Position numbers and translations under genes: made by a program. This document shows positions 7,224 to 41,535 of a stretch of DNA of 64,000 nucleotides, one piece after another. Numbering within the stretch: position 1 is the first letter of the stretch; each line of letters begins with the position of its first letter. The notes beneath the pieces are model-generated. The model searched no databases, was not told where the DNA came from, and worked only from the letters and a program-made list of their open reading frames with translations. Source of the stretch: Tubulanus polymorphus (lineage: Eukaryota > Animalia > Nemertea); NCBI RefSeq assembly GCF_964204645.1, contig NC_134028.1, forward strand, positions 11,889,263 through 11,953,262, in the 5' to 3' direction.

Positions 7224-7526
7224 TGTTTTTTGCGGAGTTTGTCGATTATACGCGGTCTCCATATCACTTCACCTTCATTTTTGCCGTCAGAAAAAAACGT
7301 TTAATTTTTCGCGAAATAGAAGGGGTAACAAATTGGTTGATATTTCCGGCATCTACACCTAATAGGCTACACATTTCCGTAAACAACGCTAAAACCGGCC
7401 AAGAAATACAGATTCTAGCAACGTGCTTATGACGCAAGCCCAAATGATATTTTAGCCAATAACGCCCTGATGCGCGAATCGCTAGCGCCATCATAACATT
7501 TCAAGAGAACGTGCCTATGAAACGTT
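7224..7526 (+). repeat. Local duplicate of the Polinton target sequence (empty site)
   Basis: Matches 7691-7863 joined to 24327-24427, and 24685-24715. It contains a single AACGCT (aaacaacgctaaaaccgg) with no insertion. Confidence 0.9.
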
Positions 7527-7668
7527 AGTAATAGGGAATATGGGGGTTCAGATCAAAGGTCGAGTTCATAAAAATGAAAAATAAATTCTCGCACACTCGA
7601 ATTTATTTTTCATTTTTATGAATTCGCCCTCCCAACCTTTAATCTGAACCCCCATATTCCCTATTACT
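7527..7668. repeat. Solo fold-back hairpin with Polinton-like AGTAAT...ATTACT ends
   Basis: Arms agtaatagggaatatgggggttcagat / atctgaacccccatattccctattact, plus an inner palindrome ttcataaaaatgaaaaataaatt / aatttatttttcatttttatgaa. The symmetry extends into the flanks (7512-7683). Confidence 0.9.
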
Positions 7669-7863
7669 AACGTTTCATAGGCATTATTAAATGTTTTTTG
7701 CGGAGTTTGTCGATTATACGCGCTCTCCATATCATATCACTTCACCTTCATTTTTGCCGTCAGAAAAAAACGTTCAATTTTTCGCGAAATAGAAGGGGTA
7801 ACAAATTGGTTGATATTTCCGGCATCTACACCTAATAGGCTACACATTTCCGTAAACAACGCT

Positions 7864-7984
7864 AGTAATTAGAATATGTGGCTTTCAGATCAGAGGACGA
7901 GAGGACGAGACACCACTCATCACCACAAGTAATTTTTTTTTTCCTACTCATCACCACAAGTAATTTTTTTTCCTAATAAATGGG
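7864..7984 (+). repeat. Left TIR of copy 1, with an internal tandem duplication of actcatcaccacaagtaat(T)n-cct
   Basis: Reverse complement of 24231-24320 apart from the duplication. Runs into the ATG of the 108-aa gene. Confidence 0.95.
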
Positions 7985-8306
7985 AGATAGAAAAGCATTC
8001 TTAGCAACAATAAATAACAGAATAAAACCAGCAAAAAAACAATTTGAAATAAAAAAGTTAGTTGATGTTACAAAAGAAATTGAACATAAAATATTGAAAT
8101 TAGAAAAGATAAAAACTAAATATGGAGAGAAAGTATCAGCTAATTTAAGCTACTGTAATGTTAGTACATCGCGAGAATTTAAAGTGTTTTTACCCGATAA
8201 ATGGGTTTCATTGAGTACGGAGGAATTGAAAGATTTAGTAGGATTTAAAATAATATATCATGGGAAAAATGAAGACGGTCATCATGATTTAGAAATTGTT
8301 GATTAA
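7980..8306 (+). CDS. 108-aa Polinton protein (TKYG motif); function unknown, possibly small nucleic-acid-binding
   Basis: TAAATG start inside the TIR. Homologous pseudogenes at 49390-49712, 32064-32337 and 54070-55940. Confidence 0.75.
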   Translation: MGDRKAFLATINNRIKPAKKQFEIKKLVDVTKEIEHKILKLEKIKTKYGEKVSANLSYCNVSTSREFKVFLPDKWVSLSTEELKDLVGFKIIYHGKNEDGHHDLEIVD

Positions 8307-8471
8307 ATTTTAAAAAAAATAAATTAATAAAAATAATGAATATCTAGAATCCGAAATGACTTATCTGGACAATTTAATTGCTCCACAGTGATAGACAAAA
8401 GTAGTGAGATGGTGCCGTATGGCACCCACATGGTGATATTCAATTATTTTTTTTGCTTTTTTTCTAAAATA

Positions 8472-8840
8472 TTAATCCATTTTTTTTATTATCAATTTTG
8501 GAATTTCAGAAGTACTTTCATTTTTGATAGCAGTTGGTTCAGAATTACTAATATCATGAATTTTATTTGATTTCTTATACCAATTACACCCAATCAAAAT
8601 GAATACAATTACAAATCCAACTGTAAAATATAAATATTTATCAAATATTCTATTATCAGAAGGAGTAGAAATAACAATATTTTCACCATTTTTATTAACA
8701 TTTTTATTACTTATTTTTTCTTTTACAGCTTTTTTATATTCTTGTGATTTAATTCCTAATTGTCGAGACCATTCAATTTGTTTCTGAGTTCTCGGTTTTT
8801 TCTTCACAGTTAATTCCTTCACTTCTTCCACCTCGCTCAT
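8472..8840 (-). CDS. 122-aa basic protein with one transmembrane helix
   Basis: TAAATG start; KKKPRTQKQ basic patch; hydrophobic YLYFTVGFVIVFILIGC; intact paralogue at 50807-51175. Confidence 0.8.
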   Translation of the reverse strand: MSEVEEVKELTVKKKPRTQKQIEWSRQLGIKSQEYKKAVKEKISNKNVNKNGENIVISTPSDNRIFDKYLYFTVGFVIVFILIGCNWYKKSNKIHDISNSEPTAIKNESTSEIPKLIIKKMD

Positions 8841-9378
8841 TTATTATAGAAATATTTTTACTTTCAATATTTGAAAATGTTATAACCCCAGTTGATAATA
8901 ATGTCATAAATCCACCTAATTGAAATGATAAATATCCAATCCATTTATTTAATTCAGTCATAACTAAATAGTCATTTTTTAAATCGGAATATAATCTATT
9001 TTCATTTTCAATTGGTAGTATATAATTACATAATTTACTATAACCTTTTACTACATTTTCTGATATCGCGTCATTAATTCTAGCTGTTCTCGCGGCTTCA
9101 TAAATCTTAAATAATCTAATAATTTCATCTGATTTCATTGTATCTAATTCATTATAAGTTAAATTTTTACCGACAAAATTTTTACATTTTCCAGATGCTA
9201 TTAATATTTCTAATTGATGTTTACAATAAAGATAATATTCATAATTATTATTTGTTGTAACATTATTTAAAGCACCATCATCTGGAGTTAATTTTGTTTC
9301 TGTTATTCCTAAATCATCTAAAGTTTTTTCAATTGGAACATCACCATTTTTAGATTTTATTTTCTTTTCACCTCCCAT
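8773..9378 (-). CDS. 201-aa conserved Polinton protein with a hydrophobic C-terminal segment
   Basis: TAAATG start; nearly identical paralogue at 51108-51713; frameshifted copy at 43382-44000. Confidence 0.8.
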   Translation of the reverse strand: MGGEKKIKSKNGDVPIEKTLDDLGITETKLTPDDGALNNVTTNNNYEYYLYCKHQLEILIASGKCKNFVGKNLTYNELDTMKSDEIIRLFKIYEAARTARINDAISENVVKGYSKLCNYILPIENENRLYSDLKNDYLVMTELNKWIGYLSFQLGGFMTLLSTGVITFSNIESKNISIINERGGRSEGINCEEKTENSETN

Positions 9379-9410
9379 TTATATAACAAAAAAATTAATT
9401 ATGTGATGTT

Positions 9411-9672
9411 GCAACTAGAATTCAACTAGAATGTAACTAGAATTCAACTAGATTAACAAGCTAGTTGAAATATTGTTGTTTTTGTTTATTTCTTATTAAA
9501 TGTAGTTGATTTTTGTTCCAACTACTAACAACTAGAATTCAACTAGAATGTAACTAGAATTAAACTAGATTAACAAGCTAGTTAAAATATTGTTAAATCT
9601 ATTTGATTTTTGTTACAACTACTAATAACTAGAATTCAACTAGAATTCAACTAGATTAACAAACTAATTGAA
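9411..9672. repeat. Internal array of 11-bp (C/T)AACTAGAAT(T/G) units in three blocks
   Basis: Directly visible. The same intergenic position carries two-block versions at 43193-43352 and 51744-51921. Confidence 0.92.
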
Positions 9673-9673
9673 T

Positions 9674-10282
9674 TTAAATAAATTCATATTTAAATGGGTG
9701 TTGTAATCTAAATAGTAATTTTGATCTTTTAATATTTTTCAACTCATCCATATATTCATTATGTAAATCATGTGGAATAATATCATTTTCCTCAAGTGCA
9801 TTTTTCATTGATTTTCTATCTTTATTGTAGAATAAAACTAGAAATCTAATGTTTTCTCTAAAGTCTTTAACAATTGAATTATATTTTTGATTTAAAACCC
9901 AAGTTGTCATCCCAAAATGTCTCCCAGAGAAAGCTAAATAGCATAACTCACTTTCTCTAACTTTTGAATCATGTAGATTAGCACAATCATCTATAATGAA
10001 TAATGTATTTGATCCTTTATAAATATCAATTGCTATTTTTATACAATTATCTAAATTTTCTTTTACTGTTTTAGGATCTAATATAATAAATTTATTATTC
10101 CTAGTAATATTTCTATCATAAGTTTGATTAAATTCATATGTTGGACAAAATAATACTATAATATCAAAATAGTTTTTGTAAACAGTTTCTAATAAATTTA
10201 ATATAAAATAAGTTTTTCCACAATTTGTTACACCAGAAATTAACATATTATGAGGCTCAAATATGAATAATTCCTTATTCAT
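9674..10282 (-). CDS. A32/FtsK-like DNA-packaging ATPase
   Basis: Walker A GVTNCGKT, Walker B LFIIDD, and a GRH...Q motif typical of A32-like ATPases. Confidence 0.92.
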   Translation of the reverse strand: MNKELFIFEPHNMLISGVTNCGKTYFILNLLETVYKNYFDIIVLFCPTYEFNQTYDRNITRNNKFIILDPKTVKENLDNCIKIAIDIYKGSNTLFIIDDCANLHDSKVRESELCYLAFSGRHFGMTTWVLNQKYNSIVKDFRENIRFLVLFYNKDRKSMKNALEENDIIPHDLHNEYMDELKNIKRSKLLFRLQHPFKYEFI

Positions 10283-11410
10283 TTATATATTTTTAATTTT
10301 ACTTGATAATATCCATTCATTAAATTTATCTGGCCATCCAACCCATTTTACTAAAGAATATTTTTTTCTTTTAATAGTTTTTGTTTTTAATACTTTTTCA
10401 ATTTTATATTCTTGTTCTAGATTTTCAGTAGTTAAACTTAATTCTTCTTCGTAAAAGTAGCCATCAACTTCTTCACCATCTAAATCTTCTAATTTATAGA
10501 CATATGGTTTTGTTGTTATTACCTTTTTTATTTTATATATTTCCCTAGTAAAATTTCGATCGTATCCTTTGTCAAATATCTTTTTATACTTAGATATTCT
10601 AACATTTTGACCAACTTTAAATTTAGGTTCACCAAAATCATCTATAAGAAATGCTCCATATAAATTATTCCAAACAATTTCAGCATTTTCAGGTTTTCTA
10701 GCATCAATAGGTTTCATTCCAATAGAAGAATGATAAGAATTATTATATCCTTCTATCAATTTTGGTAAAACATCAATCCATTTAAAAGTATTATTTGCTG
10801 TAAAATATTTCCACATTCTTGTTCTTAATGTTCTATTAAATCGTTCAACAACTGCTGCTTTTTTATCTGATTTTGTTGAAAAATATTTAATATTATGATT
10901 ATCTAAGAGTTCATGAACAAGTGAATTATCAAATTCTTTTCCATCATCAAATTGTATTTTTTCTGGTTTTAGTTTATCATCCGAAAGAAATTTTCTTAAA
11001 ACATTTGATGTTTGTACAGCATCTTTTCTATAAAGTGGGAAACTCCATACATAACGACTAAAAATATCAATTATATTCAATAACCACCAATAATCATCAT
11101 TATCTTTCTTAACATTTTTCATATCAATTAAATCTCCTTGCCACTGTTGATCTACATAACTTACCATAGTTTTACGAGTTTTATATTTTCTAACAATTTT
11201 TTTATGTGTTGTATATGTTGGTTGTTCTAACATAAATTCATTTATATCTTTATATTTAACTAAATTTTGTGGGATTATCTTATCTAATTTATCTTGTTTT
11301 ACTTTACGCCATATATTTTTAGTAGAAGAATAAGCAACCGAACTCTCAGGGTTGTAATATAAATTTCTTAAATATTGTTCTTTAGTATTAGGAGTTTTTT
11401 TACCACCCAT
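10283..11410 (-). CDS. Retroviral-type (RVE) integrase with C-terminal chromodomain
   Basis: DDE triad in WQGDLID / IQFDDGKEF / VVERFNRT; chromodomain SLVKWVGWPDKFNEWI. Confidence 0.95.
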   Translation of the reverse strand: MGGKKTPNTKEQYLRNLYYNPESSVAYSSTKNIWRKVKQDKLDKIIPQNLVKYKDINEFMLEQPTYTTHKKIVRKYKTRKTMVSYVDQQWQGDLIDMKNVKKDNDDYWWLLNIIDIFSRYVWSFPLYRKDAVQTSNVLRKFLSDDKLKPEKIQFDDGKEFDNSLVHELLDNHNIKYFSTKSDKKAAVVERFNRTLRTRMWKYFTANNTFKWIDVLPKLIEGYNNSYHSSIGMKPIDARKPENAEIVWNNLYGAFLIDDFGEPKFKVGQNVRISKYKKIFDKGYDRNFTREIYKIKKVITTKPYVYKLEDLDGEEVDGYFYEEELSLTTENLEQEYKIEKVLKTKTIKRKKYSLVKWVGWPDKFNEWILSSKIKNI

Positions 11411-11440
11411 TTATATATCCTTAATTTTAACTTTATATTT

Positions 11441-12688
11441 CTAATATTGAATACTATCTAATTGTGAATTTACAATATTTAATTGTGCGTCAGATATAAT
11501 ATAAATGTGCATTTTAAAATTTTTGATTCCTTTATTCTTTTTCATGAATAATTGTATTCCATCTTTAGTGTTTTGTAGTTTTTTTCCAGAACCATGTAAT
11601 GAATTATCTTCAGTTGTTCTAAAATCTAACCATAATGCATATTTATTACCGGTATAATAATCAATTTGATTAATATTACAATTTTCAGATGATTTTACTT
11701 TTTCATTCATAAAATGTTTTTTAATTTCTACCCATTGATCTATCATTCTCATTCCTTGACAAAATATTTTATTTGCTATTCCTTCGATAGTTATTTCTAC
11801 TTTTGTTATTTCAGGATTATAATAATTGTCAACATTTATTGCGCCATTAGTATACGTTCCAATGGTAAAAAATATTAATATACCTTTAATAGATCTTCTA
11901 GGGAAGTTAATATTCTCATTAATTATTTCATCATTTGCATTAATAGTTACAGTTTTAAATTTATCAATATAATCATATAATAATGAAAATCCTTGATTGT
12001 ATTGAGTTTGAATTATGCTAGCAATATTTTCATTAGTTACTGTGTTATATTCTAAACATATATTCGATAATTTATAACTCATATCTTTATTAACGCTAGA
12101 TAATACAATTTCATTTACAGGAGCAAATGTTATCTCAAATATAATATCTTCTTGAATTGCGTATTTATATAAAGGTGCATTATTATTTATCAATTCAAAG
12201 TCTAATGGAATTTTATATTTGCTTCCATATATACTTTTTATCAATTTATCTACATCATTAGTTAATATTGCATTATTAGCTTCTGATCTTAATTTATTTT
12301 GGTTTTCTGATTGAATTCCTTGAAATATCATATTATTTCTATTTTCTTTAGTTAACCATAAATCTTTATAATGCATAAATAAATTATAATCATCTAATGA
12401 GAAAACTGTTTCTGGACCAATCTTTATTGTTAATTTTTTAATCAAATATCTTCCAACATTATCAACAACATAATTATTATTATTACCGATTACTTTTATA
12501 TCAGCTGATAAATAAATACTGTTTGGAACATAAAAAGTATTTTGTGTTAATCTAGGAATTCTAACATATAAAGTTTCATCAGGATTAATATTAGAAGGGT
12601 TATGAGTAATTATATGATGTGATCTTTCTGCTTTAATAGCATTAGATATTCTATGATTCTTCGAAGGACTTATATAACTCCCACTCAT
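11441..12688 (-). CDS. Putative double jelly-roll major capsid protein
   Basis: 415 aa, beta-strand-rich, next to the integrase and ATPase, and retained in all copies. The fold is inferred from context and resemblance, not computed. Confidence 0.72.
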   Translation of the reverse strand: MSGSYISPSKNHRISNAIKAERSHHIITHNPSNINPDETLYVRIPRLTQNTFYVPNSIYLSADIKVIGNNNNYVVDNVGRYLIKKLTIKIGPETVFSLDDYNLFMHYKDLWLTKENRNNMIFQGIQSENQNKLRSEANNAILTNDVDKLIKSIYGSKYKIPLDFELINNNAPLYKYAIQEDIIFEITFAPVNEIVLSSVNKDMSYKLSNICLEYNTVTNENIASIIQTQYNQGFSLLYDYIDKFKTVTINANDEIINENINFPRRSIKGILIFFTIGTYTNGAINVDNYYNPEITKVEITIEGIANKIFCQGMRMIDQWVEIKKHFMNEKVKSSENCNINQIDYYTGNKYALWLDFRTTEDNSLHGSGKKLQNTKDGIQLFMKKNKGIKNFKMHIYIISDAQLNIVNSQLDSIQY

Positions 12689-12712
12689 TTATTTAACAAA
12701 AAAATTAATTAT

Positions 12713-14149
12713 TTATTTTTTTGATATCATATTTACTAAACCAAAAATAATAGCACTTACAACTGTAATTAAAAATAAAATAATATGTTCAGCAGCAAAG
12801 TTAATAATGTTTCCTGCAGATTTCAATATAAAACCAACAATTGAAGCAATAATTCCTGGTAATGCTGCAGCAGATTTTTTAGATAGTTCCCATAAATATT
12901 TTGCTAATTTTTTTAAACCATCCTTAACTTTATCTTGTATAGAATTATTACCTGGAGGTTTATCTGGTTTGTTAGGAGTGGGAGTAGGAGTAGATTTCAA
13001 AGCATTTGATATTGCTAAACCAATTGTTGTAAATAACATAGTTACAGCTGTTAGAATTGAAAGAATTGTTATTCCTTCTAATTTAAATAATAACTTTATT
13101 CTATCTTTCAATAATATTTCAGAATTTGGTTTAATTAACAAATCTTTAAAAATAACTTTTAATCTATTAATATTATAATCATATGATTTTAACAATAATT
13201 TAATTTCTTCTTTTTGTAATTCTACGTTATATTCTAAATCATCTTTTTCTTTTTCTAAACGTAATTCTTTTTGCCTATATTCTATTTCATCAATTACTTG
13301 ATGATCTAAATCAGACTTTAGTTGTTCTATTTCTTTATTTTTATCAGTTAATTCTTTTTCTAAAGTTCTAATTTTAAAATCTCTTATACTTTTATTATGT
13401 GCAATTTTATCAGATGCAAGTCTTATACTAATAATTTCTCTAATTGCTTTATCAGAAAATATATCTAAATCTTCTAATTCTTGATCTGTTGCATCAAGTA
13501 ATCCATTCGGTAAAAGTTTTTCAATTGGAACTTTATTTGATTTAAGTTTACTATTTTTGGAAGTTATATTCTGTTCAGAAGTTGTTTCTGTTTCTGATTT
13601 CTTTTTGATTATTTCAAATAATTCATTAATTCTTTGTTTAAATACATCTATATTATCATCTATTTCTTTTTGTGTAACATCAGTTATTTCATTACTATTA
13701 CTTATTATTTTAATTCTATCTGGTTTTAATTTTTCTAAAGTTGATTCTGATAATATTTTATTTTTATTATTTTTATAAGTGATATCAATATAATAATCAC
13801 CTTTCAAACGATAATAACATTTACCATTATTTAAAAATTTTAATTGATCTGCTAAAAGTGCAACGTCTTCATCATTTATGTTAAAATTAGATTTTTCAAT
13901 TAAATCTTCTAATTTAGGTATTTTGTTTAAATTATCTAAATCTTGTTTTACTAAATCTGGGTCTAAACTTTCAGGATTTAATTGTGATTCAGCATTTTTA
14001 ATATAATCAGGCATATTCAAATTATTATTATATTCTGGTTCATTACCATCATTAAAACTTGTTTCATCAAAATCAGGTGGTTGTTCATCAGTTATACCAG
14101 GTTCATCAAAAGGATCCATTCAAATATCTTCTACACCTTCTACATCCAT
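12713..14149 (-). CDS. About 478-aa coiled-coil, multi-TM membrane protein; TGA at codon 10 in this copy (ORF track starts at 14119)
   Basis: TAAATG start at 14149 reads MDVEGVEDI*M, whereas copy 3 (38789) reads MDVEGGEDIGM. Acidic N-terminus, heptad-rich middle, TM, PTPTP linker and two further hydrophobic helices. Confidence 0.78.
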
Positions 14150-14166
14150 TTATATAATAAAAAAAA

Positions 14167-15555
14167 TTAAAATTTAAAATATAATATTCCTCCTATAACA
14201 ATTCCTATACAAGTTATAGCTAATTTAGTATTTTCATGGAATTTATTATCATCATTTAGTTTAATTATATCATGTTGAATTTTATCAGTTCTATTATTTT
14301 CTGATGTATTGTAATCTTTTATTTTAGAATCATTATTTAATTTAATATTCTTAGTTTTAGTTTCTGTTGATTGAATATGTTTTTTATTTTTTTCACCTTC
14401 CATTAATTTTGGAGCAGTGATAATCTTTTTATTTATATCATTCAATCCAAATGAATTATTTATTGTTGCAGTTTTAATTAGATTATTATAACCAATTATA
14501 TTTCCCATCTTCAATACTAAATCATTAGAAATAATTAATAGATTAGGGCCTATACAATAATTTAATCTAATATGTGATTTATCTAAATAATTTTGATATC
14601 TTATAATGTTTTCTGGAATCGATCTATTTTTATCATTATGTATGGAATCTTCAAATAATACTTTGAATTGTTTTTGTGTATCGAATGATGTATTCAAATT
14701 TCCAATTATCGGTGATCTTGTTTCAACTTGTGATCCTAGAATACAAATCAAATAAGTTCTAACAGATTGATTTATTCTTTCTATACCTGATTTAGTAAAA
14801 CCTTCACTATTTTCTAAAATAAAATAAACCCAACCATTATTGTTTTCTTGTTTTAAATTATCATAAAATTTTGGTAATTTATTGAAATTTAATGTTTCTA
14901 AATCCTTTGTTTCTATTTTACCATAACCTAATTTTTTATTATAGATATTATAAAAACTATTAGATGGTATGGGAAGTGCACAATATTCTGCAATCTTTCT
15001 AGGGCAAGGAAGTGATCTTATTGTTCCAATTTTTATTCTAAAATCAGAATTATTTATATCTATATTAAATTCATTGCAAATTTTATAAAACTTTGATAAA
15101 TTAATATTATTATCTAATTCTTTGAAATACCTAGATCCTGGTAAAGCGCACTCTAATTCATTTAATATTATTCTGATTTGAAAGTATGTATGAAATCTAA
15201 ATAAACTTTGAATTAATTTATATTTAGAATTATTTAAATGATCATTCCAACTAATTCCACATCCTGTTGTTGCACAATAAACAGCAAAATTTAATTGATT
15301 CTGCCAATACTTCATATTAGATTTTAATAACCATTGTTTTTCATCTTTCAATTTTTTAAAATTAATCAAATATACATGAAATATATTTTCCATCTTTGCA
15401 TTAAAATTATTAGTTTCAGTAACATAAATATATAAATCAATTAATGAATCTAAAACTTCATTTCTATATGTAATATCTTTATTAAAATCTATTGCTGGAA
15501 TATTATATTTAATTGATTTATTATATTGGAAAGCTTTTGGAAAACTATCTACCAT
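14167..15555 (-). CDS. 462-aa protein with C-terminal membrane anchor
   Basis: TAAATG start; C-terminal LAITCIGIVIGGILYF; intact paralogue at 37384-38772. Confidence 0.85.
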   Translation of the reverse strand: MVDSFPKAFQYNKSIKYNIPAIDFNKDITYRNEVLDSLIDLYIYVTETNNFNAKMENIFHVYLINFKKLKDEKQWLLKSNMKYWQNQLNFAVYCATTGCGISWNDHLNNSKYKLIQSLFRFHTYFQIRIILNELECALPGSRYFKELDNNINLSKFYKICNEFNIDINNSDFRIKIGTIRSLPCPRKIAEYCALPIPSNSFYNIYNKKLGYGKIETKDLETLNFNKLPKFYDNLKQENNNGWVYFILENSEGFTKSGIERINQSVRTYLICILGSQVETRSPIIGNLNTSFDTQKQFKVLFEDSIHNDKNRSIPENIIRYQNYLDKSHIRLNYCIGPNLLIISNDLVLKMGNIIGYNNLIKTATINNSFGLNDINKKIITAPKLMEGEKNKKHIQSTETKTKNIKLNNDSKIKDYNTSENNRTDKIQHDIIKLNDDNKFHENTKLAITCIGIVIGGILYFKF

Positions 15556-15571
15556 TTATATAATTAAAAAA

Positions 15572-16006
15572 TTAATAATTTATTAATTCTTTTAATAATT
15601 TATCTTGTTCTTCAACTGTTATATGACCATTTAAACTTATTATATAATCTAGTGTGTTCTTTAATTTATTAATTTCTTTTATATTAGTTTTAATTTTTAC
15701 TTTATTACTTTTTATATTTAATTTTGAACTTATACCGGTTAAAACACTTGAACTTAATCCTAATACACCAATTGATATAGCTAAAGGTGTTAATGGACTG
15801 AATATTGCTAAAAATGTTATTACAGAACTAATTGTAACCGAACCACTTATAATAAGATAATATATAATTTTACTTTTTAAATATTTTTTCTTTTTAACTT
15901 TTAAGTCACTTTCAAATTCTAATATTTGTTTTTCTAAATATGTTTTTAATTTAGTTTTATTTATATCATGAGGAATAATATCAATACTATCAACTTTATC
16001 TTCCAT
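15572..16006 (-). CDS. 144-aa two-TM membrane protein
   Basis: Hydrophobic hairpin IIYYLIISGSVTISSVITFLAIF...LAISIGVLGL; TAAATG start. Confidence 0.8.
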   Translation of the reverse strand: MEDKVDSIDIIPHDINKTKLKTYLEKQILEFESDLKVKKKKYLKSKIIYYLIISGSVTISSVITFLAIFSPLTPLAISIGVLGLSSSVLTGISSKLNIKSNKVKIKTNIKEINKLKNTLDYIISLNGHITVEEQDKLLKELINY

Positions 16007-16025
16007 TTATTTAGAATAAAAATTA

Positions 16026-16448
16026 CTAATTAGTAAACTTATAAGCAACAAATATAACAATAACTGTTCCACCTAAAATCCAAATTATTTCATATTTCTG
16101 TTGTTCTTTACTTGGGGTATAATAATCTGATAATTTAGGTTTGTATAGATGTAATTTTTCTTTATTGGTTACTGCGTTATATAAACTCATTGCATCATCA
16201 ACTGATTGAAAATCTCTATGTGAAATCTTCTGATCATATAATTCTTTATTGATGTAATCCATATAGTTTTGTCTCTTTTCTCTATATTCTTCTGCAGCTT
16301 TATTGTATTTCTCTAACGCTAAGTTATGTCTTCTTTGTTCTCCTAATGAACTATTTTTATCAATATGTTTAAATAAATAACCACCACCAGTAAATGCTAA
16401 AGCGTTAACAATTGCTGATCCTATAATAGTTATAATTGCAGAAGCCAT
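16026..16448 (-). CDS. 140-aa membrane protein (hydrophobic N- and C-termini)
   Basis: MASAIITIIGSAIVNALAFTGGGYLF ... IIWILGGTVIVIFVAY; TAAATG start. Confidence 0.8.
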   Translation of the reverse strand: MASAIITIIGSAIVNALAFTGGGYLFKHIDKNSSLGEQRRHNLALEKYNKAAEEYREKRQNYMDYINKELYDQKISHRDFQSVDDAMSLYNAVTNKEKLHLYKPKLSDYYTPSKEQQKYEIIWILGGTVIVIFVAYKFTN

Positions 16449-16472
16449 TTATTTAACAAAAAAATTATGCAT

Positions 16473-16694
16473 TTATATGGGAGGAATATATTTTTGTTTT
16501 TCCAAATAATCAATTGTTAAATTAGATAAAGTAACTGCTAATGTTAACTTTAAAATATCATTGATATCAAATCTATCAACATTAACACTTCCCATTTTGA
16601 ATACTTTTTTTAATACCATTGAATAACCAACAGTTCCAACTGATAGTAAGGCGCCATTATATAATCCAGTTATTATCCACTTATTATCACTCAT
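16473..16694 (-). CDS. 73-aa small hydrophobic protein
   Basis: Identical in amino-acid sequence to 33461-33682 despite synonymous changes; TAAATG start. Confidence 0.85.
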   Translation of the reverse strand: MSDNKWIITGLYNGALLSVGTVGYSMVLKKVFKMGSVNVDRFDINDILKLTLAVTLSNLTIDYLEKQKYIPPI

Positions 16695-16697
16695 TTA

Positions 16698-17036
16698 TTA
16701 ATCAAAAAAATTACTATCATCAAAATATTTAGTTAACTTATTTATGATTAATTCAACATTTATTTCATTACTAGTTTTATGATTATCATATATTTTGGAT
16801 AATATGTTTTTGATATCTTCAATAATTCCATCTTCATTTAATTCATAATATTCTAAAGGTGATTTAATTAAATCAATTACTTTTTCTATATTATACTTTT
16901 CTTTATCAATCATTGACGCATTGTTAAATGATTTACTTTTTATATCAGTAATTACATCATTTAGTTTAATTCTCATTTCTTTACCATGTTTAAAATCAAA
17001 CCCAAAACATATACTCGGTCCAACAGTTATATTCAT
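16698..17036 (-). CDS. 112-aa hypothetical protein
   Basis: TAAATG start; homologues at 33121-33444 and 36478-36831. Confidence 0.78.
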   Translation of the reverse strand: MNITVGPSICFGFDFKHGKEMRIKLNDVITDIKSKSFNNASMIDKEKYNIEKVIDLIKSPLEYYELNEDGIIEDIKNILSKIYDNHKTSNEINVELIINKLTKYFDDSNFFD

Positions 17037-17052
17037 TTATATAATGAAAAAA

Positions 17053-17811
17053 TTACTCTTTACATCTTATAACTAATTCATAAATTACAGGGAAATTATT
17101 TAAATCAATTAAGTATCCATTATGATTTCTAATTTCTAATCTAAAATTATTAAAACGAGGAATGCATGGTTTGAAATCACATTCTGTTAAATTATAATTT
17201 ATTTGCGTTCCAAATTGTTTAACATTCTTCAATGGTAAAATGTTTAGTAAACCAGAATTACATGTTGTATCTTTAGTTGCTTCAAATGTTTTTGTAGGAT
17301 CGATTAAATTGCAATAAATATAAAAATGTGTAAAAGGTATTATATTTGAATTACCGTCTACGTTTCCTGTAACAATTTGTGGTTTAATTCCTAACAGTTT
17401 AGCTAAAGGTTTCCTTACCATAAATGCATGTTTGCTTTCATCATCTAACTTTATTTTAATTTTATCAGAACTATCACTTTTTATAAATCTAATTGAAAAT
17501 TTATATTCACTTCCAAGTTTTAAACGAGCTCTTTTATTAATTTCTTGGGCTAATGTTTCTAAATTATATAATCCTGGTTTTAACATTAGATAAAACCATT
17601 TATTTTTATTTTTCATATGAATTGCAAAACCTCTATGTTCGAAAGTTTTATCCGATATATTATAAAAAGAATTACATAAACTTATATTTACTAATTTCAA
17701 ATCAACGCAATTCTTAAATTCTCTATCTAATTGTACTAATAAATTATGAGATTTATAATTTGTAAGTTTTCTAGAATCAATAAATATTCTGTATTCTTTT
17801 AATTCTACCAT
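17053..17811 (-). CDS. Putative minor capsid (penton, single jelly-roll) protein
   Basis: N-terminal IFIDSR, G-x-Y (PGLYN), FYIYCNLI and C-terminal IDLNNFPVIYEL resemble Polinton/virophage penton motifs. Confidence 0.68.
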   Translation of the reverse strand: MVELKEYRIFIDSRKLTNYKSHNLLVQLDREFKNCVDLKLVNISLCNSFYNISDKTFEHRGFAIHMKNKNKWFYLMLKPGLYNLETLAQEINKRARLKLGSEYKFSIRFIKSDSSDKIKIKLDDESKHAFMVRKPLAKLLGIKPQIVTGNVDGNSNIIPFTHFYIYCNLIDPTKTFEATKDTTCNSGLLNILPLKNVKQFGTQINYNLTECDFKPCIPRFNNFRLEIRNHNGYLIDLNNFPVIYELVIRCKE

Positions 17812-17879
17812 TATTTATAACATAAAAAAATTACCGCTCATCACTAAAAATTAATTTTAATAAAATTTTTCCTTAATAA

Positions 17880-19175
17880 ATGGATGAGAAGATAGCATGC
17901 GAAATTTGTGGTGAACTTCTAAGAAAAAGTAATATGGCTCGACATATGAAAAAACATGATGAAAACTATAAACCCCCTAAAATAAACTGTCCAAATTGTA
18001 ATAAAACATTCTCTAGAAATTATTTCAAAAAACATTCAGAGAAGTGTAGAATTAATAGCGCAACGGCTAATGTTGATAGTAATTCTGTTGAAGTTGAACC
18101 TGAAGTTATTTGGAAAAGACCTTTCTTATTCTATGATAAGGATAATATAAAAGATCATTTCTGTGAGCCTTGTCGAATAAAATATAGCCCTGAAAATATA
18201 GAAGATTGGGAGAATCATCAATTTCGTAAAGCACATATAGATAAATTTTCTAATAAATTTGAAACTGAATTCAATGAAAGAAAAAATAATTTATTAGAAA
18301 AAATAAAATATGAGAAAACGTTACCAGATAATAAAGAAACAGTTGAAAAGTTAGAAAAACAATATAATGAATTAACAAGAAAAACATATTATTGTAAATA
18401 TTGTAAATTGATTATTACAACAAGTAATTCAAATCTACATAATAGAACAATAAAACATAAAGAAAACGTAAGAAAATACCAAGAGCTTAATGAAGATCTA
18501 TTACCTAGAAATTATAAACAAAAATGCCCACAATGTATTTATGCGACTTTAAGGCAAGAAGGTACTGTGTTATTTTGTGTTGAATGTGGATGGCAAAAGA
18601 ATTTATTAGGTGAAGAAAAAACTAGAAATTTTCTCATAGATCCAAAATTAAATTATCTTAATGAAATTTTTAAAATATTTTCCATGGAAGATCATACACC
18701 AGAATATATGCAATGGCTTGAAAAAATGAAAATAATAGAAAATAAAAATGGTGAAATAACTAAAAAAGATATTATAAAAACAATTATTCCACCAACATTT
18801 AACACAAAACAAAAGAAAATGTATTTATATTTATTATTTAACGATTATTATGAAAAACCTAAATTAACAGAAGATATGGAAAATATAAAAAAAATATTTA
18901 AACAAATATTAATGTATTATTTGGAAAATAGAATAACAGATTCAATAAATTATGAATTCTTTTTAAATAAGATTGTAAATTATTTAAACCTAGATATTAT
19001 AATTCCATTTGATGAATTAACAAACAAAAAGAAACAAAGAGAGCGAGATGAAATGTGGAACAAGATAGAACTTTATTTAAATGAGAAAAATGGAATGGAA
19101 GAAGAACCTGAACAATTAAATGAAAATGAAGAAGCCAATAGTGATTTCGAGTTTGATGATATAGATCCATTTTAA
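17880..19175 (+). CDS. 431-aa multi-zinc-finger protein
   Basis: CEIC...H..KH, CPNC...H..KC, CEPC...H...H, CKYC...H...H and a CPQC...CVEC ribbon. Its stop overlaps the pPolB stop on a shared TTAA (19172-19175). Confidence 0.85.
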   Translation: MDEKIACEICGELLRKSNMARHMKKHDENYKPPKINCPNCNKTFSRNYFKKHSEKCRINSATANVDSNSVEVEPEVIWKRPFLFYDKDNIKDHFCEPCRIKYSPENIEDWENHQFRKAHIDKFSNKFETEFNERKNNLLEKIKYEKTLPDNKETVEKLEKQYNELTRKTYYCKYCKLIITTSNSNLHNRTIKHKENVRKYQELNEDLLPRNYKQKCPQCIYATLRQEGTVLFCVECGWQKNLLGEEKTRNFLIDPKLNYLNEIFKIFSMEDHTPEYMQWLEKMKIIENKNGEITKKDIIKTIIPPTFNTKQKKMYLYLLFNDYYEKPKLTEDMENIKKIFKQILMYYLENRITDSINYEFFLNKIVNYLNLDIIIPFDELTNKKKQRERDEMWNKIELYLNEKNGMEEEPEQLNENEEANSDFEFDDIDPF

Positions 19176-22100
19176 TAACCATAAGGTAATGTTTTTATAC
19201 CATCATCTAAAATATGCCTTTTATCATCAAATGGATTTAAACTAGTTTTTTCAACTTCATTAATGTACATCTCATGATCTTCTGATCTTAAACAATTCAT
19301 TTTGTTTTTCATTACAATTGATTTATATAAACACTTTATATAATCTTGAAATTCTATATGTTTATCAACCACATGTTTTGTTATTCCTTTTAACTTTTTA
19401 GCTTCATGATCTTTTGTTCTGTAACTATACATTTTACTTCTTATCCCAACAAATTCAATCATTTCATCACCTTCTAATTCATCTTTAAATTTACCAGGAA
19501 TCTTTTTATTATCATTGCTAAATAGTTCATGATCTTTAGGATAATTGCTAAAATCAAAATGATGTTTTAATGTTTTTAAGTCTTTTGTTATATCATTTGT
19601 CTTGATTTTTAGTATGTAACTGTCAGTATTTTTTTGGATTAATGGGAACCCAGAATTGAATGTTCCATCATCTGTTGATAAATCATAAACATAGTCAGTT
19701 GGGTTATATATTTCAAATAAATCTTTAACTTCTTCTGTTAATTCTTTTTCTACATGCCTTAAATTAAAACAATTTGGTTTAGATTTAATTAATTCTATAT
19801 TCATATTAAATCCTAATGAACTGCATAACACATTTAACCCTGATATAGCAACTTTTCCTTTCTGTGCAAAGGTTATCGTTTTATCCTTTATAAATTTTTT
19901 AGTACCATCGGCTGCGTAGAACCCAATGAAGAACCATTTTCTAAGATTATATTCTGAATTTAATATATAATCTGGTACTATTTTTTCTTTAGTTGAAGTA
20001 TTACTTTTCACTATTGCATGAATATAGAATTCATCATTATATTCTATAGCAAAATCTTTAGGATTATTTACAAGTATTCTATAAACTGCTGATGATTTCA
20101 TAACATCCATGATTCTAAATGTTTTATGTGAATAAACTTCTTCACAGAATTTCTTAATTCTTTCTAATAATTTTAAGTCTTGATTGCATAAATACCAACA
20201 ATATTTATTACCCCAAACATATTTATACACACCTGCTGAACCATCACCCATGAAAAATCCTTTGATAAAATATTCTTTTTCTTCTAATGTTTCAGGTTCT
20301 ATATTATAAATATTATCAATTATTTCATCAAATGACATATGATTCATTCTTTGGAAAAATCTTTTATGTAATAATTCATCTCCAATTTTTATATCAGTTG
20401 GTTTTATTTCATCACCATTTCGTTTAATTAAACTATGGTCTTCTGTAACATCTACGAACCCTAATTTAGTTCTAACTCTATAGATTTTCTTATTTGTTTT
20501 ATGTCTAATAATATTCTTTAATTTTTTCCATCCATTTCTTGTCCAAACATCCATTAATCCATTTATTTGTATTAGTTCTTTTTCACCATATGAAATATAA
20601 GATTTATTTTGATTAGGAATTATTTCTGAAATTCTTCTAATTAATATTTGGTTATTGTATTTTAATAATATTGGGGTGTCAGCTGTTACAGAATCAAAAT
20701 ATAATATTTCTATATGTTTTTCTCCAAAAAGTGGTTGTAAAACATTATAATAAAAATCATACATTAATAATTTTGATATTTCTAAAACTGTTGAACCAAT
20801 GAAAATGGGTTTGTTAAATTTCATGGACGTTCTTTTTAATTTTACTGCTGTTAAATAATCTTCAAATCTTTTATTTCCTAAATGTCTAAGACTTGATTGT
20901 AAATGTCTTAATCTTTCAGAATTATTTACTAATTCAATGTCGTTTCTATTACGAATATTCTCACAAGTTTTTCCATAAAAACTATTGTTCATCAATTTGA
21001 AAAAATCTTTTTCAAAATCTGTTTTTGATATGGTTCTCTGTTGAGTATTGAAATCTATATATTTTTCTAACCACTTCGATTGATTAAATTCAATATATCT
21101 ATGTACTTTCTTTAATTTCATTCCTTGTTTTAGATAAAATTTTAACATTCTATAATGAACAATATAATTGTATTTATTATTTTGAGTAAGTATTAATTTT
21201 TCTGTAAAAACATGATCTTTCGGTTTTATTTTCTTCTGGTATTCACTTAAATAACTATCATCTACAGTTAAATGTTCTGGGCAATAAGGTAAGTTTCTTG
21301 TTTTAAACTTTATATTTTCAGGATATTCTAAATCAACTACAAAGAAATAACCAATTGGTGCTTCATCTTTTAAACTAATAATTGCGCTTTCCCAATCAGT
21401 TTTATCACCATTTTCAACTTCTGTTAATATAAAATTTTTATATGGTTGAGGTTGCATCATTGCCCAACCATATAAATTATTGGCGTCAATATATAATAAT
21501 TTATATTCATCATTTGCTTTAAAATACCTATCTCCCATAACACCACTAATTCCACCTCTAATTGATTTTTCAAATAATAAAACCATATCTGGTTCTTTTA
21601 ATAAATCTAATTCTACATTTGTATATTTTAAACCACATTGCCAGGTTAAACCAGGACTAGAGTAGCAATAACAAGGATCAACGTTAAAATGATTCAAATT
21701 AACTTCTCTAAATTTTTCAAATATGTCAGCCAATATCATAACATCTGATTTTAAATATAAATCAACTAATTCACCATGATTTTTCATCTTAAAATGGTTC
21801 CAAATATTTAATGTTCTATTAAACACTTCGTCTTTCACATACTCCTCTTTTAATTTATCATAAAATTGATCTTTTAATAATTCTGTTACATTAAAATCAT
21901 CATGTGTTTTATAAAATGAATAAGGAATTGCGCCTTTATATCTTAATAATTTAAAATCTTGGTCATTTGGATAATAATATCGAGTTATAATAAAATCATT
22001 ATCAACTAAACTTTTTGATAAATTATCTAATGAACTTGCTAGAAATCTATAAGAATCTAAAAATCTAATGCAACCAAATTGAAATGAAATATAATTTTCA

Positions 22101-33460: not shown

Positions 33461-33682
33461 ATGAGTGATAATAAGTGGATAATAACTGGTTTATATAATG
33501 GAGCATTGCTATCAGTGGGAACTGTTGGTTATTCAATGGTATTGAAAAAAGTATTCAAAATGGGAAGTGTTAATGTTGATAGATTTGATATAAATGATAT
33601 CTTAAAATTAACATTAGCAGTAACTTTATCTAATTTAACTATTGATTATTTAGAAAAACAAAAATATATTCCTCCCATATAA
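33461..33682 (+). CDS. 73-aa small hydrophobic protein (copy 2)
   Basis: Identical protein to 16473-16694. Confidence 0.8.
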   Translation: MSDNKWIITGLYNGALLSVGTVGYSMVLKKVFKMGSVNVDRFDINDILKLTLAVTLSNLTIDYLEKQKYIPPI

Positions 33683-33706
33683 ATGCATATTTTTTTTGCT
33701 AAATAA

Positions 33707-36376
33707 ATGGCTTCTGCAATTATAACTATTATAGGATCGGCAATTGTTAACGCTTTAGCATTTACTGGTGGTGGATATTTCTTTAAGCATATTGATAAAA
33801 ATGGATCATTATCATAACAAAAAAGACAATTTGGCCTTAGAAAAATATAATAAAGCTGCAGAAGAATATAGAGAAAAGAGACAAAATTATATGGATTACA
33901 TCCATAAAGAATCATATGATCTGAAAATTTCTCATAGAGATTTTCAATCAGTCGATGATGCAATGAGTTTATATAACACAGTAACAAATAAAAAAAATTA
34001 CATCTATATAAACCTAAATTATCAGATAATTATACACCAAGTAAAGAACAACAAAAATATGAAATAATATGGATTTTAGGTGGAACAGTTATTGTTATAT
34101 TTGTAGCATATAAATTTACTAATTAATTATATATTACTTTTTGCTAAATAAATGGATGATAAAATTGATGGTGTTAATATTATTCCTCATGATATAAATA
34201 AAACTAAATTAAAAATATATTTGGAAAAACAAATATTATAATTTGAAAGGGACTTAAAGATAAAAAAGAAAAAATATTTAAAAACTAAAATTATATATTA
34301 TTTGATTATGAGTGGTTCGGTTACAATTAGTTCTGTAATAACATTTCTAGCAATATTCAGTCCATTAACACCTTTAACTATATCAATTGGCGTGTTAGGA
34401 TTAAGTTCAAGTGTATTAACCGGCATAAGTTCGAAATTAAATATAAAAAGTAATAAAGAAAAAATAAAATCTTATATAAAAGAAATTAATAAATTAAAAG
34501 ATACATTAGATTATATAATAAGTTTAAATGGTAATATAACAGTTGAAGAACAGGATAAATTATTAAAAGAATTAATAAATTATTAATTTTTTTATTATAT
34601 AAATTGGGTTTCCAAAAGCTTTCCAATATAATAAATCAATTGAATATAATATTCCTGCAATAGATTTTAATAAATATATTACATATAAAAATTTTGTTTT
34701 AAATTCATTAATTTATCTAGAAATTTATGTTACTGAAACACAGTTTTTTATTTCTAAAATGGAAAATATATCTAATACATATGAAGTTACTTTTACTCGA
34801 GATGAATATCATATATATAAAGTAAAATCTAATATGAAATATTGGCAGAATCAATTAAATTTTGCTGTTTATTGTGCAACAACTGGCTGTGGTATAAGTT
34901 GGAATAATCATTTAAATAACTTAGATAAAAATTTGAATTATTCTGATTTAAAATTCATCCATACAATATTTAGATTTCACACATATTTTCAAATCAGAAC
35001 TATATAAAATGAATTAGAATGTCCTTTGCCCGGATCTTAATATTTTAAAGAATTGGATAATAATATTAATCTATCTAAGTTTTATAAAATATGTAATGAA
35101 TTTAATATAAATATTAATTCCGATTTTAGAGCGCATGGTAAATCGCAAGGTATTGGTGAACAGTATGAAATAAAAAGAATTGATTATATGCATAGAATTG
35201 GAGCTTATCATAATTAGAAAGATTGATAATAATAATGGTTGGATTAATTTCATTTTAGAAAAAAGTGAAGGTTCACTAAATCAGGTATACAAAGAATAAA
35301 TCAATCTATTAGAACTTATTTAATTTGTATTCTAGGTGCACAGGTTGAAACAAGATCACCAATAGTTGGAAATGATAATACTTCATTTGATACACAAAAA
35401 CAATTCAAAGTATTATTTAAAGATTCCATTCATAATGATAAAAATAGATCGATTCCAGAAAATATAGTTAGGTACCAAAATTATTTAGATAAATCACATA
35501 TTAGATTAAATTATTGTATTGGTCCCAATTTATAAATCATTTCTAATGATTTAGTTTTAAAAATGGGAAATATAATTGGTTATAATAATCTAATTAAAAC
35601 TGCAACAATAAATAATTCATTTGGATTAAATGATATAAATAAAAAGATTTTTACTGCTCCAAAATTAATGGAAGGTGAAAAAAATAAAAAACATATTCAA
35701 TCAACAGAAACTAAAATTGAGAATATTAAATTGGATTATGATTCTAAAATACATCAGAAACTATAAAAACTGATATTATTCAACATGAAATAATTAAAAC
35801 TAATAATGATAATAAATCACATGAAAATACCAAATTAGCTATAACTTGTATAGGAATTGTAATAGGAGGAATATTATATTTTTAATTTCAATTTTTATAA
35901 GATATAAATGGATGTAGAAGGTGGAGAAGCTTATGAAATGGGAGAAATGGGAGAAATGGGAAATAATAATGATGGGTATATTGATGATGCTGAAACTAAT
36001 ATAGTTAATGATAATGAAACAGCATATAGTTCTAATTTAGCAGATAGCAAAATATCCATGGGAACTATCTAAAAAATCTGCTGCAGCATTACCCGGAGTT
36101 ATAGCAACAATTGTTGGTTTTGTTTTAAAATCTGCCGGGAATATTATTAACTTTGCTGCTGAACATATTATTTTATTTTTAATTACAGTTGTAAGTGAAA
36201 TTATTTTTGGATTAGTGAATATGATCAAAAATAAATAATCAATTTTTTCTCTTAAATAAATGAGTTGGAGTTACATAAATCTTTCTAAGAATTCTAGAAT
36301 ATCTAATGCAATTAAAGCAGAAAGATATCATCATATAATTACACATAATCCTTCTAATATTAATCCCGTTGAAACT
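33707..36376 (+). pseudogene. Degraded 140-aa, 144-aa, 462-aa, coiled-coil and 5' MCP genes (copy 2)
   Basis: Collinear with 12600-16448 of copy 1, with stops, frameshifts and a large internal deletion near 36040. Confidence 0.85.
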
Positions 36377-36477
36377 AGAAATAAGAAATCATAATGGATA
36401 TTTCATTGATTTGAATAACTTTCCTGTGATATATGAATTAGTTATAAGATGTAGAGAGTAGTTTTTTCATTATATAA

Positions 36478-36831
36478 ATGAATATAACTGTTGGACCGAG
36501 TATATGTTTTGGATTTGATTTTAAACGTGAGAAAGAAATGAAATTTAACATCAATGATGTAATTACACAAATCAAAAATATTGCATTTTCTAATGAAACA
36601 ACATTTAAGTATGAAAAAACAATAGATAAAGAAACTTTTAATGTAGAAAAGATTATTAATTTAATTAGAGAATCTTTAAGATTTTATGAATTAGATGAAG
36701 ATTTTATCATCGATGATATTAAAAAAATAATAATTGAAATATATACAAATGAAACTAGTAATGAAATAAATGTTGAAATAATCATCACTAAGATAACTAA
36801 ATATTTTGAAGATAGTAATTTTTTTGATTAA
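36478..36831 (+). CDS. 117-aa homologue of the 112-aa gene
   Basis: MNITVGPSICFGFDFK...DSNFFD with a divergent middle. Confidence 0.75.
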   Translation: MNITVGPSICFGFDFKREKEMKFNINDVITQIKNIAFSNETTFKYEKTIDKETFNVEKIINLIRESLRFYELDEDFIIDDIKKIIIEIYTNETSNEINVEIIITKITKYFEDSNFFD

Positions 36832-37383
36832 TAAATGAGTGATAATAAGTGGATAATAACTGGATTATATAATGGCGCATTACTATCAGTTGGAACTGTT
36901 GGTTATTCAATGGTATTAAAAAAAGTATTCAAAATGGGAAGTGTTAATGTTGATAGATTTGATATAAATGATATCTTAAAATTAACCTTAGCAGTTACTT
37001 TATCTAATTTAATCTAAAGTGACTTAAAGATAAAAAAGAAAAAATATTTAAAAAGTAAAATTATTTATATATTATATATTATTTGATTATAAGTGGTTCG
37101 GTTACAATTAGTTCTGTAATAACATTTCTAGCAATATTCAGTCCATTAACACCTTTAGCTATATAAATTGGTGTATTAGGATTAAGTTCAAGTGTATTAA
37201 CTGGTATAAGTTCAAAATTAAATATAAAAAGTAATAAAGAAAAAATTAAAACTAATATAAAAGAAATTGATAAATTAAAGAATACACTAGATTATATAAT
37301 AAGTTTAAATGGTCATATAACAGTTGAAGAACAAGATAAATTATTAAAAGAATTAATAAATTATTAATTTTTTTATTATATAA

Positions 37384-38772
37384 ATGGAAGATAGTTTTCC
37401 AAAAGCTTTCCAATATAATAAATCAATTAAATATAATATTCCAGTAATAGATTTTAATAAAGATATTACATATAGAAATGAAGTTTTAGATTCATTAACT
37501 AATTTGGAAATTTATGTTACTGAAACTAATAATTTTAATGCAAAGATGGAAAATATATTTCATGTATATTTAATTGATTTAAAAAAATTGAAAGATGAAA
37601 AACAATGGTTATTAAAATCTAATATGAAGTATTGGCAGAACCAATTAAATTTTGCTGTTTATTGTGCAACAACAGGATGTGGAATTAGTTGGAATGATCA
37701 TTTGAATAATTCTAAATATAAATTAATTCAAAGTTTATTTAGATTTCATACATACTTTCAAATCAGAATAATATTAAATGAATTAGAGTGCGCTTTACCA
37801 GGATCTAGGTATTTTAAAGAATTAGATAATAATATTAATTTATCAAAGTTTTATAAAATTTGTAATGAATTTAATATAGATATAAATAATTCTGATTTTA
37901 GAATAAAAATTGGAACAATAAGATCACTTCCTTGCCCTAAAAAGATTGCAGAATATTGTGCACTTCCCATACCATCTAATAGTTTTTATAATATCTATAG
38001 TAATAAATTAGGTTATGGTAAAATAGAAACTAAGGATTTAGAAACATTAAATTTCAATAAATTACCGACATTTTATGATAATTTAAAACAAGAAAACAAT
38101 AATGGTTGGGTTTATTTCATTTTAGAAAATAATGAAGGTTTTACAAAATCAGGTATACAAAGAATAAATCAATCTATTAGAACTTATTTGATATGTATTT
38201 TAGGTGCGCAAGTTGAAACAAGATCCCCAATAATTGGAAATTTAAATACATCATTTGATACACAGAAACAATTCAAAGTATTATTTGAAGATTCAATTCA
38301 TAATGATAAAAACAGATCGATTCCAGAAAACATTGTAAGATATCAAAATTATTTAGATAAATCACATATTAGATTAAATTATTGTATAGGCCCTAATCTA
38401 TTAATTATTTCTAATGATTTAGTATTAAAGATGGGAAATATAATTGGTTATAATAATTTAATTAAGACTGCAACAATAAATAATTCATTTGGATTGAATG
38501 ATATAAATAAAAAGATTATTACTGCTCCAAAATTAATGGAAGGCGAAAAAAATAAAAAACACATTCAATCAACAGAAACTAAAACTAAGAATATTAAATT
38601 GCATAATGATTCCAAAATAAAAGATTACAATACTACAGAAAATATTAAAACTGATAATATTCAACATGATATAATTAAAACTGATAATGATAATAAATTA
38701 CATGAAAATACTAAATTAGCTTTAACTTGTATAGGAATTGTTATAGGAGGAATATTATATTTTAAATTTTAA
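37384..38772 (+). CDS. 462-aa C-terminally anchored protein (copy 3, intact)
   Basis: Full-length paralogue of 14167-15555. Confidence 0.85.
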   Translation: MEDSFPKAFQYNKSIKYNIPVIDFNKDITYRNEVLDSLTNLEIYVTETNNFNAKMENIFHVYLIDLKKLKDEKQWLLKSNMKYWQNQLNFAVYCATTGCGISWNDHLNNSKYKLIQSLFRFHTYFQIRIILNELECALPGSRYFKELDNNINLSKFYKICNEFNIDINNSDFRIKIGTIRSLPCPKKIAEYCALPIPSNSFYNIYSNKLGYGKIETKDLETLNFNKLPTFYDNLKQENNNGWVYFILENNEGFTKSGIQRINQSIRTYLICILGAQVETRSPIIGNLNTSFDTQKQFKVLFEDSIHNDKNRSIPENIVRYQNYLDKSHIRLNYCIGPNLLIISNDLVLKMGNIIGYNNLIKTATINNSFGLNDINKKIITAPKLMEGEKNKKHIQSTETKTKNIKLHNDSKIKDYNTTENIKTDNIQHDIIKTDNDNKLHENTKLALTCIGIVIGGILYFKF

Positions 38773-38788
38773 TTTTTTTATTATATAA

Positions 38789-40245: not shown

Positions 40246-40265
40246 TTAATTTATTTGTTAAATAA

Positions 40266-41504: not shown

Positions 41505-41535
41505 GAAATATAAAGTTAAAATTAACGATATATAA

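Follow-up and report, generated by a model that had tools for sequence, protein, structure and literature searches.

The 64-kb window (the whole stretch of DNA that was analyzed) carries a complete Polinton at positions 7864..24320 (16457 bp, 23% GC). Its terminal inverted repeats of ~80 bp begin with AGTA, and 6-bp target-site duplications reading AACGCT on the plus strand abut it on the left (7858..7863) and on the right (24321..24326); the flank repeat is seen uninterrupted near position 7385. Pfam identified an rve integrase with a chromodomain (10283..11410, minus strand) and an A32-like packaging ATPase (9674..10282, minus strand). The frame at 11441..12688 (minus strand) probably encodes a double jelly-roll major capsid protein, as judged from a weak Capsid_N match and from Atlas neighbors at 0.97 to 0.98, some of them with Capsid_N, a comparison of low recognition value. 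An intact open reading frame (ORF) of ~5 kb at 19172..24235 (minus strand) encodes a polymerase of 1687 aa, assigned to the protein-primed family B polymerases (pPolBs) via relatives at 47 to 59% identity that match PF03175; the polymerase itself gave no direct PF03175 match, and its N-extein had no significant sequence match in the PDB. Both the gene set (pPolB through its relatives, integrase, packaging ATPase, and capsid through a weak match) and the ends (terminal inverted repeats and a 6-bp target-site duplication) are those of a Polinton/Maverick element, which bears out the Polinton context proposed in the first-pass annotation. The adenain maturation protease of adintoviruses was looked for in 14 ORFs of the element (one 73-aa ORF was left out), and no protease family match was found.

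An insert of 355 aa interrupts the polymerase at window positions 19628..20692 (minus strand; polymerase residues 1182 to 1536). It begins with SVTADTP and ends with PLIQKN, contains no stop codons, and keeps the frame of the polymerase ORF. The insertion point is YFD|TDS, the pol-c site in catalytic motif C, so that the insert starts with Ser1 and ends with Lys-Asn, followed by Thr+1. Two independent observations fix its boundaries: an intein-less copy elsewhere in the window, in which YFD-TDS is continuous, and 53 sequencing reads that skip exactly 1065 nt. The stop-free insert with TEDH and two LAGLIDADG motifs that had been described at this position was thus upheld by the translation, by profile matches, and by the empty copy. 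A Hint-domain profile match, which had been named beforehand as a test, was found: NCBIfam TIGR01445 (intein_Nterm) scored 32.7 bits against a cutoff of 24.5. Pfam LAGLIDADG_3 was above its cutoff, and Pfam Intein_splicing gave an E value of 5.5e-7, which is significant yet under the cutoff of that family.

The N-terminal Hint (splicing) region, with blocks A and B, covers about residues 1 to 110 (20363..20692, minus strand); TIGR01445 spans residues 2 to 88, and the region is all-beta in the structure model. Block B is the TEDH motif at residues 83 to 86 (20435..20446, minus strand). The first LAGLIDADG motif (block C; FIKGFFMGDG, residues 142 to 151) lies at 20240..20269 (minus strand) and contains the acidic residue Asp150, a position that is D in 63/66 and E in 3/66 aligned inteins. 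The second (block E; FFIGFYAADG, residues 254 to 263) lies at 19904..19933 (minus strand) with Asp262, which is D in 61/66, and has block D Lys237 upstream. The C-terminal Hint region, with blocks F and G, occupies 19628..19735 (minus strand); it retains Asp337 and Asn355, has Lys as the penultimate residue, and is without the block F His. S1, T83, H86, K237, D337, and N355 are kept in all 66 aligned inteins.

By the established mechanism of intein splicing, the acyl shift begins at Ser1, the N-extein passes to Thr+1, and Asn355 cyclizes. All three residues are present; TIGR01445, the structure model, and Foldseek support a Hint fold comprising blocks A, B (TxxH), F, and G; and the in-frame insertion has a counterpart allele of the host protein from which it is exactly absent. 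Together these are the features of a class 1 intein. The two LAGLIDADG helices with their acidic residues and the block D lysine (D150, K237, and D262) are those of a LAGLIDADG endonuclease. Nearly all extracted homologues share the YxD|TD junction after the first Asp of motif C, and the insert has its affinity with pol-c inteins. An AlphaFold2 model built from the 66 aligned sequences had a mean pLDDT of 94.4. Its best PDB matches by Foldseek were PI-PkoII and VMA inteins, with I-DmoI at an rmsd of about 3.2 Å, and its best matches among viral models were PolB inteins of phycodna-, pandora-, marseille-, and megaviruses.

The penultimate His and the block F His, which are usual and not obligatory and which aid asparagine cyclization, are both absent (Lys354; no His at residues 338 to 347). 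Their absence would fit a dead or non-splicing relic in an inactive polymerase copy. We regard that explanation as very unlikely: the 5-kb frame is intact, the target duplication is perfect, and the intein is found at high read depth. Both histidines are missing from 30/66 aligned inteins, the present one included, and many viral polymerases bear inteins in the same histidine-less state. Across all 66, the penultimate position is occupied by Lys in 38, by His in 22, and by Ser in 6. The S...KN/T style had been put down as typical of giant viruses and archaea alike. The KN ending is not an archaeal style in our sample, because all 35 inteins extracted from prokaryote contigs, 31 of them archaeal, end in His-Asn.

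A second Polinton copy ~10 kb from the intein-bearing one aligns on both sides of the intein. Its polymerase gene (27459..31952, plus strand) is broken by frameshifts and stops and is intein-less; the empty pol-c site lies at 30591..30630 (plus strand), with the insertion point between 30610 and 30611, and 38/40 nt match the intein flanks. Full and empty states were also found in run X6, a set of raw genomic reads from a separate study with the same species label, of which about 12% was read. Depth was 92 to 253 over the intein and mostly 225 to 433 over the exteins, 77 reads linked the flanks while omitting a net 1065 nt (the 53 with the exact skip and 24 with the same net skip), and depth was about 490 to 510 across the empty site of the second copy, with no dip. 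Since the reads cover both states deeply, both occur in many copies. From depth, we infer that full alleles make up very roughly a third, an estimate from overlapping read sets that is uncalibrated for genome size. Among the best-supported 40 of 553 read differences, 7/14 in the intein were synonymous, against 19% expected (P = 0.008), with 0 stops, and 12/19 in the exteins were synonymous. An assembly artefact is ruled out by the reads that cover the intein and both junction states. The two window copies were not counted as a case of conversion: their DNA identity is 83 to 88% near the site and 58 to 88% elsewhere, and motif conservation explains the slight excess. The intein-less copy belongs to a larger fragment, one of two further partial, rearranged Polinton copies in the window (27459-44156 and about 48950-53835); part of the former is duplicated internally, and its polymerase gene contains about 850 nt of additional sequence close to the end.

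The integrated Polinton likely has an animal host. The first-pass annotation placed the intein in an animal genome; an animal host is likely on indirect evidence, and the gene is an endogenous viral one and not a host gene. We weighed the alternative that the contig derives from a protist or another co-sequenced eukaryote, which would make the intein another microbial-eukaryote case. In its favor, the 64-kb window contains no host gene, five small runs under the same species label contain almost none of its words, and searches with the intein, the polymerase, and the Gypsy protease (four matches for the last) named no animal. Against it, the four best-matching runs share one species label, and the separate-study reads under that label cover the intein deeply. 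The flanks are repeat-rich, and Pfam and Rfam found only repeats in them, among them a Ty3/Gypsy gag-protease relic, surrounded by LTR-like direct repeats at 57936-63885, and a small-subunit (SSU) rRNA fragment inside a host repeat at 24750-24853 (Rfam, a generic SSU match). This fragment may resemble invertebrate rRNA. The gene set of the element also resembles that of animal adintoviruses as they appear in the available text of PMC8502044. A non-animal contig is, on this evidence, rather improbable.

Several minor features of the window were recorded. The host repeat with the SSU rRNA fragment forms a palindrome at 7512-7683, and further occurrences lie at 46303-46458 and 56037-56147. A long tandem array of an 8-nt unit at 694-2100 yields spurious ORFs. 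Within 45639-47519 lies an inverted pair of frames (45700-46352, minus strand, and 46886-47458, plus strand), which may resemble free-standing HNH endonucleases of giant viruses; the one frame scanned had no Pfam HNH match. A marine metagenome run with a share of 0.08 was not taken as habitat evidence.

A search with the intein returned 316 matches, and the following figures come from the best 120 of them. Eight were in Polinton-type polymerases (ranks 1 to 5, 9, 10, and 86), and full-length matches reached 42 to 64% identity in that group compared with at most 43% in RNA-primed polymerases. With regard to the survey of Polinton pPolBs for pol-c inteins that had been suggested, 12 Polinton polymerase lineages bear the intein: the eight matches, P0174, P0312, L038, and the window's own. 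Only 5 of the best 120 relatives of the polymerase bear one. The proposed pol-c assignment stands, and the closest relatives outside Polintons are inteins of RNA-primed giant-virus-type PolBs. In viral contigs, related inteins were found at 37 loci, 17 of them in named giant-virus bins, with a best identity of 42%; none of the inteins extracted from viral contigs was in a pPolB. A junction pattern specific to the Polinton inteins matched no viral contig (0) and a single metagenome contig (1), L038, which is frameshifted within the intein. Archaeal inteins of prokaryote genomes were about 23 to 31% identical over long matches, and the six best prokaryote-genome matches, at 31 to 37% (one class at 24 to 27% aside), were short metagenome-bin contigs that may be of viral origin. 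One algal Pol delta among the matches listed bears a related intein, and 50697 phage records gave only 2 weak matches.

The rows for phylogenetic analysis were picked by similarity to the query, and most are without a taxon name. In the main intein tree (63 rows, LG+G4, with 9 archaeal pol-c inteins as the root), one clade with support of 100/100 unites 8 Polinton inteins, placed under a 96/87 node among giant-virus-type rows, and the archaeal pol-c inteins are set apart by a 100/100 branch. The sister group of the Polinton clade is weakly supported (71/93) and includes one giant-virus bin, four polymerases of T4-like phages, and an intein from a thymidylate synthase. In the best tree, the phage and algal rows fall within the giant-virus-type rows. 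A quick tree of 84 rows, from which near-duplicates and rows of <300 aa had been dropped and for which 39/120 listed matches had not been extracted, agrees with the 63-row tree. The P0174 intein stood apart from the eight-member Polinton clade in all three trees. Approximately unbiased (AU) tests rejected none of three constrained topologies: the nine Polinton inteins as one clade (P = 0.53), the Polinton clade basal beside the archaeal inteins (P = 0.35), and P0006 outside the HNH-type clade (P = 0.43). Because one clade of nine is not rejected, P0174 was not retained as evidence that inteins entered Polintons a second time independently.

The first-pass annotation had attributed the intein to a jump from the RNA-primed PolB of a co-infecting nucleocytoplasmic large DNA virus and had named an intein phylogeny as the check. 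The relatives are indeed of giant-virus type and far from the archaeal inteins, but the sister group (71/93) includes T4-like phages, and the basal placement of the Polinton clade is not rejected. The nearest relatives of the intein are other Polinton inteins, and intein and extein identities run parallel among HNH-type Polinton polymerases, so entry looks old and lineage-wide, which says little about a co-infecting virus in the present host. An origin of the Polinton pol-c inteins from giant viruses is the best reading of these sequence data, though unproven, and the topology tests leave donor, direction, and number of entries unfixed.

Alternatively, the source may have been a T4-like phage or a eukaryotic polymerase, or Polintons may be an old reservoir that donated inteins to giant viruses. 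The four T4-like phage polymerases in the sister group, the algal Pol delta with its related intein, and the P value of 0.35 for basal placement all lend this some weight. It is nevertheless unlikely in our judgment, given that the phage and algal rows are themselves nested among giant-virus-type rows, that the Polinton clade falls under the 96/87 node, that the phage records yielded so few matches, and that the archaeal inteins are so divergent. The T4-like phage polymerases in question (P0014, P0016, P0018, and P0319) have the same pol-c intein, nested among the giant-virus-type ones. Related inteins also occur at look-alike D|TD sites in DHFR-thymidylate synthase and topoisomerase II (P0026, P0008, P0099, P0115, and P0117), which suggests jumps to unrelated genes. 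In the P0310 and P0373 polymerases, the intein follows YGDTD, two residues downstream of the pol-c site.

Signs of homing come from the families of two relatives, P0004 and P0174, and not from the window's own family. The P0004 cluster has 136 members, and the 15 listed include 7 full, 6 empty, and 2 uninformative ones. When 7 full alleles of this family were compared with 5 empty ones, every one of the 10 fixed differences lay at -7 to +44 residues of the site, in an alignment of about 1190 columns, a clustering matched by 0 of 200000 random draws. The immediate flanks of the full P0004 allele match those of sister families, unlike its own empty alleles. In the P0174 family, 3/3 differences lie at -3 to +5, in a comparison of 3 full alleles with only 1 empty allele. 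The P0007 family (3 full versus 1 empty) has no difference near the site, and its flanks are identical. Site-clustered differences fit co-conversion or selection for cut-resistant empty alleles; in either case, the nuclease would have been active at some time.

These data bear on whether the intein still homes. It might splice and no longer home, having been inserted once long ago and then lost precisely and repeatedly, with ordinary recombination between copies. The parallel identities of inteins and exteins among HNH-type polymerases and the identical flanks of full and empty P0007 alleles are in line with such a history. An N-extein tree of 51 rows, with empty rows picked as relatives, required 10 changes for 10 intein-bearing rows, and change counts of this kind cannot separate gain from loss. 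Three observations argue for homing instead: D150, K237, and D262 are kept across lineages that are only 42 to 65% identical, allele differences are clustered at the site in two families, and the intein is present in a very distant VSR-type polymerase. The latter, P0006, has 20 to 28% extein identity and 42 to 49% intein identity, which points to transfer of its intein between Polinton groups. We consider the non-homing explanation quite doubtful.

Taken together, we think it probable that the insert is an intact pol-c LAGLIDADG intein in motif C of a Polinton pPolB, one that is predicted to splice itself out, that likely homes between full and empty copies, and that goes back to a probably old entry of giant-virus type. 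Predicted class 1 splicing after translation would restore the motif C aspartates and yield a working polymerase; a polymerase in which splicing failed would be expected to be inactive. The released intein protein could cut the empty YxD-TDS sites of other copies, and repair of the cut from an intein-bearing copy would spread the intein. Multi-copy, recombining elements would keep empty targets available, unlike a single-copy animal gene; the intein could thus persist in an animal genome because many element copies keep supplying empty targets. Entry into Polintons may have taken place in a shared cytoplasmic virus factory. We are evenly divided on a broader proposal, in which animal genomes harbor active inteins unnoticed in their Polintons as a reservoir, with long homing of a giant-virus-derived pol-c intein among copies and families, a live conflict between full and empty copies inside one animal genome, entry via the factory of a large cytoplasmic DNA virus, and imitation of the late promoters of that virus.

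The pol-c name, and its location at position III of family B polymerase, come from work on the mimivirus PolB intein (Ogata et al. 2005, PMC549080). As far as the available text of that report describes it, the mimivirus intein resembles ours in size (about 350 aa), Ser...Asn/Thr termini, block B Thr and His, LAGLIDADG motifs, and the pol-c site; comparing by description only, our intein differs in its protein-primed polymerase, its integrating 16-kb element, and its many copies with empty alleles. Archaeal PolB pol-c inteins (Thermococcales, Woesearchaeota, and others) share the motif C insertion point, the Ser start, and the Asn/Thr end, but besides their low identity, His-Asn ending, and separate branch they are 381 to 402 aa long. 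Inteins of algal and labyrinthulid nuclear scaffolds (Gallot-Lavallee et al. 2023, PMC10710043) likewise interrupt viral polymerase genes within the nuclear DNA of eukaryotes; as given in the available text, those are giant-virus-like polymerases of microbial eukaryotes and algae, unlike the Polinton pPolB here, and Polintons or animals have 0 mentions in that text. HNH and VSR nuclease domains are known in Polinton pPolBs (Jeong et al., 10.1101/2023.08.22.554363; Krupovic et al. 2024, PMC11071308), and one sentence of PMC11071308 attributes nuclease insertions in pPolB to intein invasions, as a suggestion. In the available text of these papers, the domains are fixed and no Hint domain is described, whereas here a complete Hint domain with LAGLIDADG motifs splits motif C and has exact empty alleles. 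Insect iridovirus inteins also belong to an animal DNA virus (PMC549080, PMC5784728), but these viruses are not integrated in the host genome, and the Chilo iridescent virus intein is of a glutamine-ending type, according to the available text of the same two papers.

Inteins are absent from metazoan genomes according to the available text of one review (PMC8529194), and a eukaryote-wide survey places them in fungi, algae, some protists, and giant viruses (PMC5784728, available text). Our literature search turned up no account of an intein with a Hint domain in a Polinton polymerase or in an animal genome, and a term count in PMC13215967 gave 0; supplements, Repbase, and InBase lay outside the scope of the search, so earlier annotation is possible. 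For a pol-c intein, the class of host protein is new and so, probably, is the class of genome. The pol-c allele is extended from RNA-primed to protein-primed polymerases, and the presence of an intact intein, in many copies, in what is likely an animal genome would be an exception that can be explained, in that a multi-copy element can keep supplying empty targets. It also offers a natural system for measuring homing within one genome.

Gene starts in the Polinton bear separately on where the element may be expressed. TAAATG is the start of 12/14 of its genes (7864-24320), mostly behind a T run, and the remaining 2/14 have TAAAT within 30 nt of the start. The polymerase is among the 12, and its TAAATG lies behind a T run inside the terminal repeat region (24233..24238, minus strand). 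For comparison, TAAATG accounts for 8% of ATGs in the element and for 50/348 ORFs in AT-rich viral loci, and 1 of the 12 TAAATG starts is a plain stop-start abutment. These starts resemble the poxvirus late promoter as described in the available text of PMC11980589, and they fit cytoplasmic, helper-driven transcription, which would provide a route for intein entry. Nothing in the nearest inteins links them to poxviruses, and no helper virus was seen. The intein had been offered as independent support for replication space shared with a large DNA virus; being old and lineage-wide, it says little on that point, but the TAAATG starts provide separate support. The intein and the TAAATG starts would together point to a site of replication that animal Polintons and large DNA viruses have in common. 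Both terminal repeats of the element end in a TAAATG motif and open a gene.
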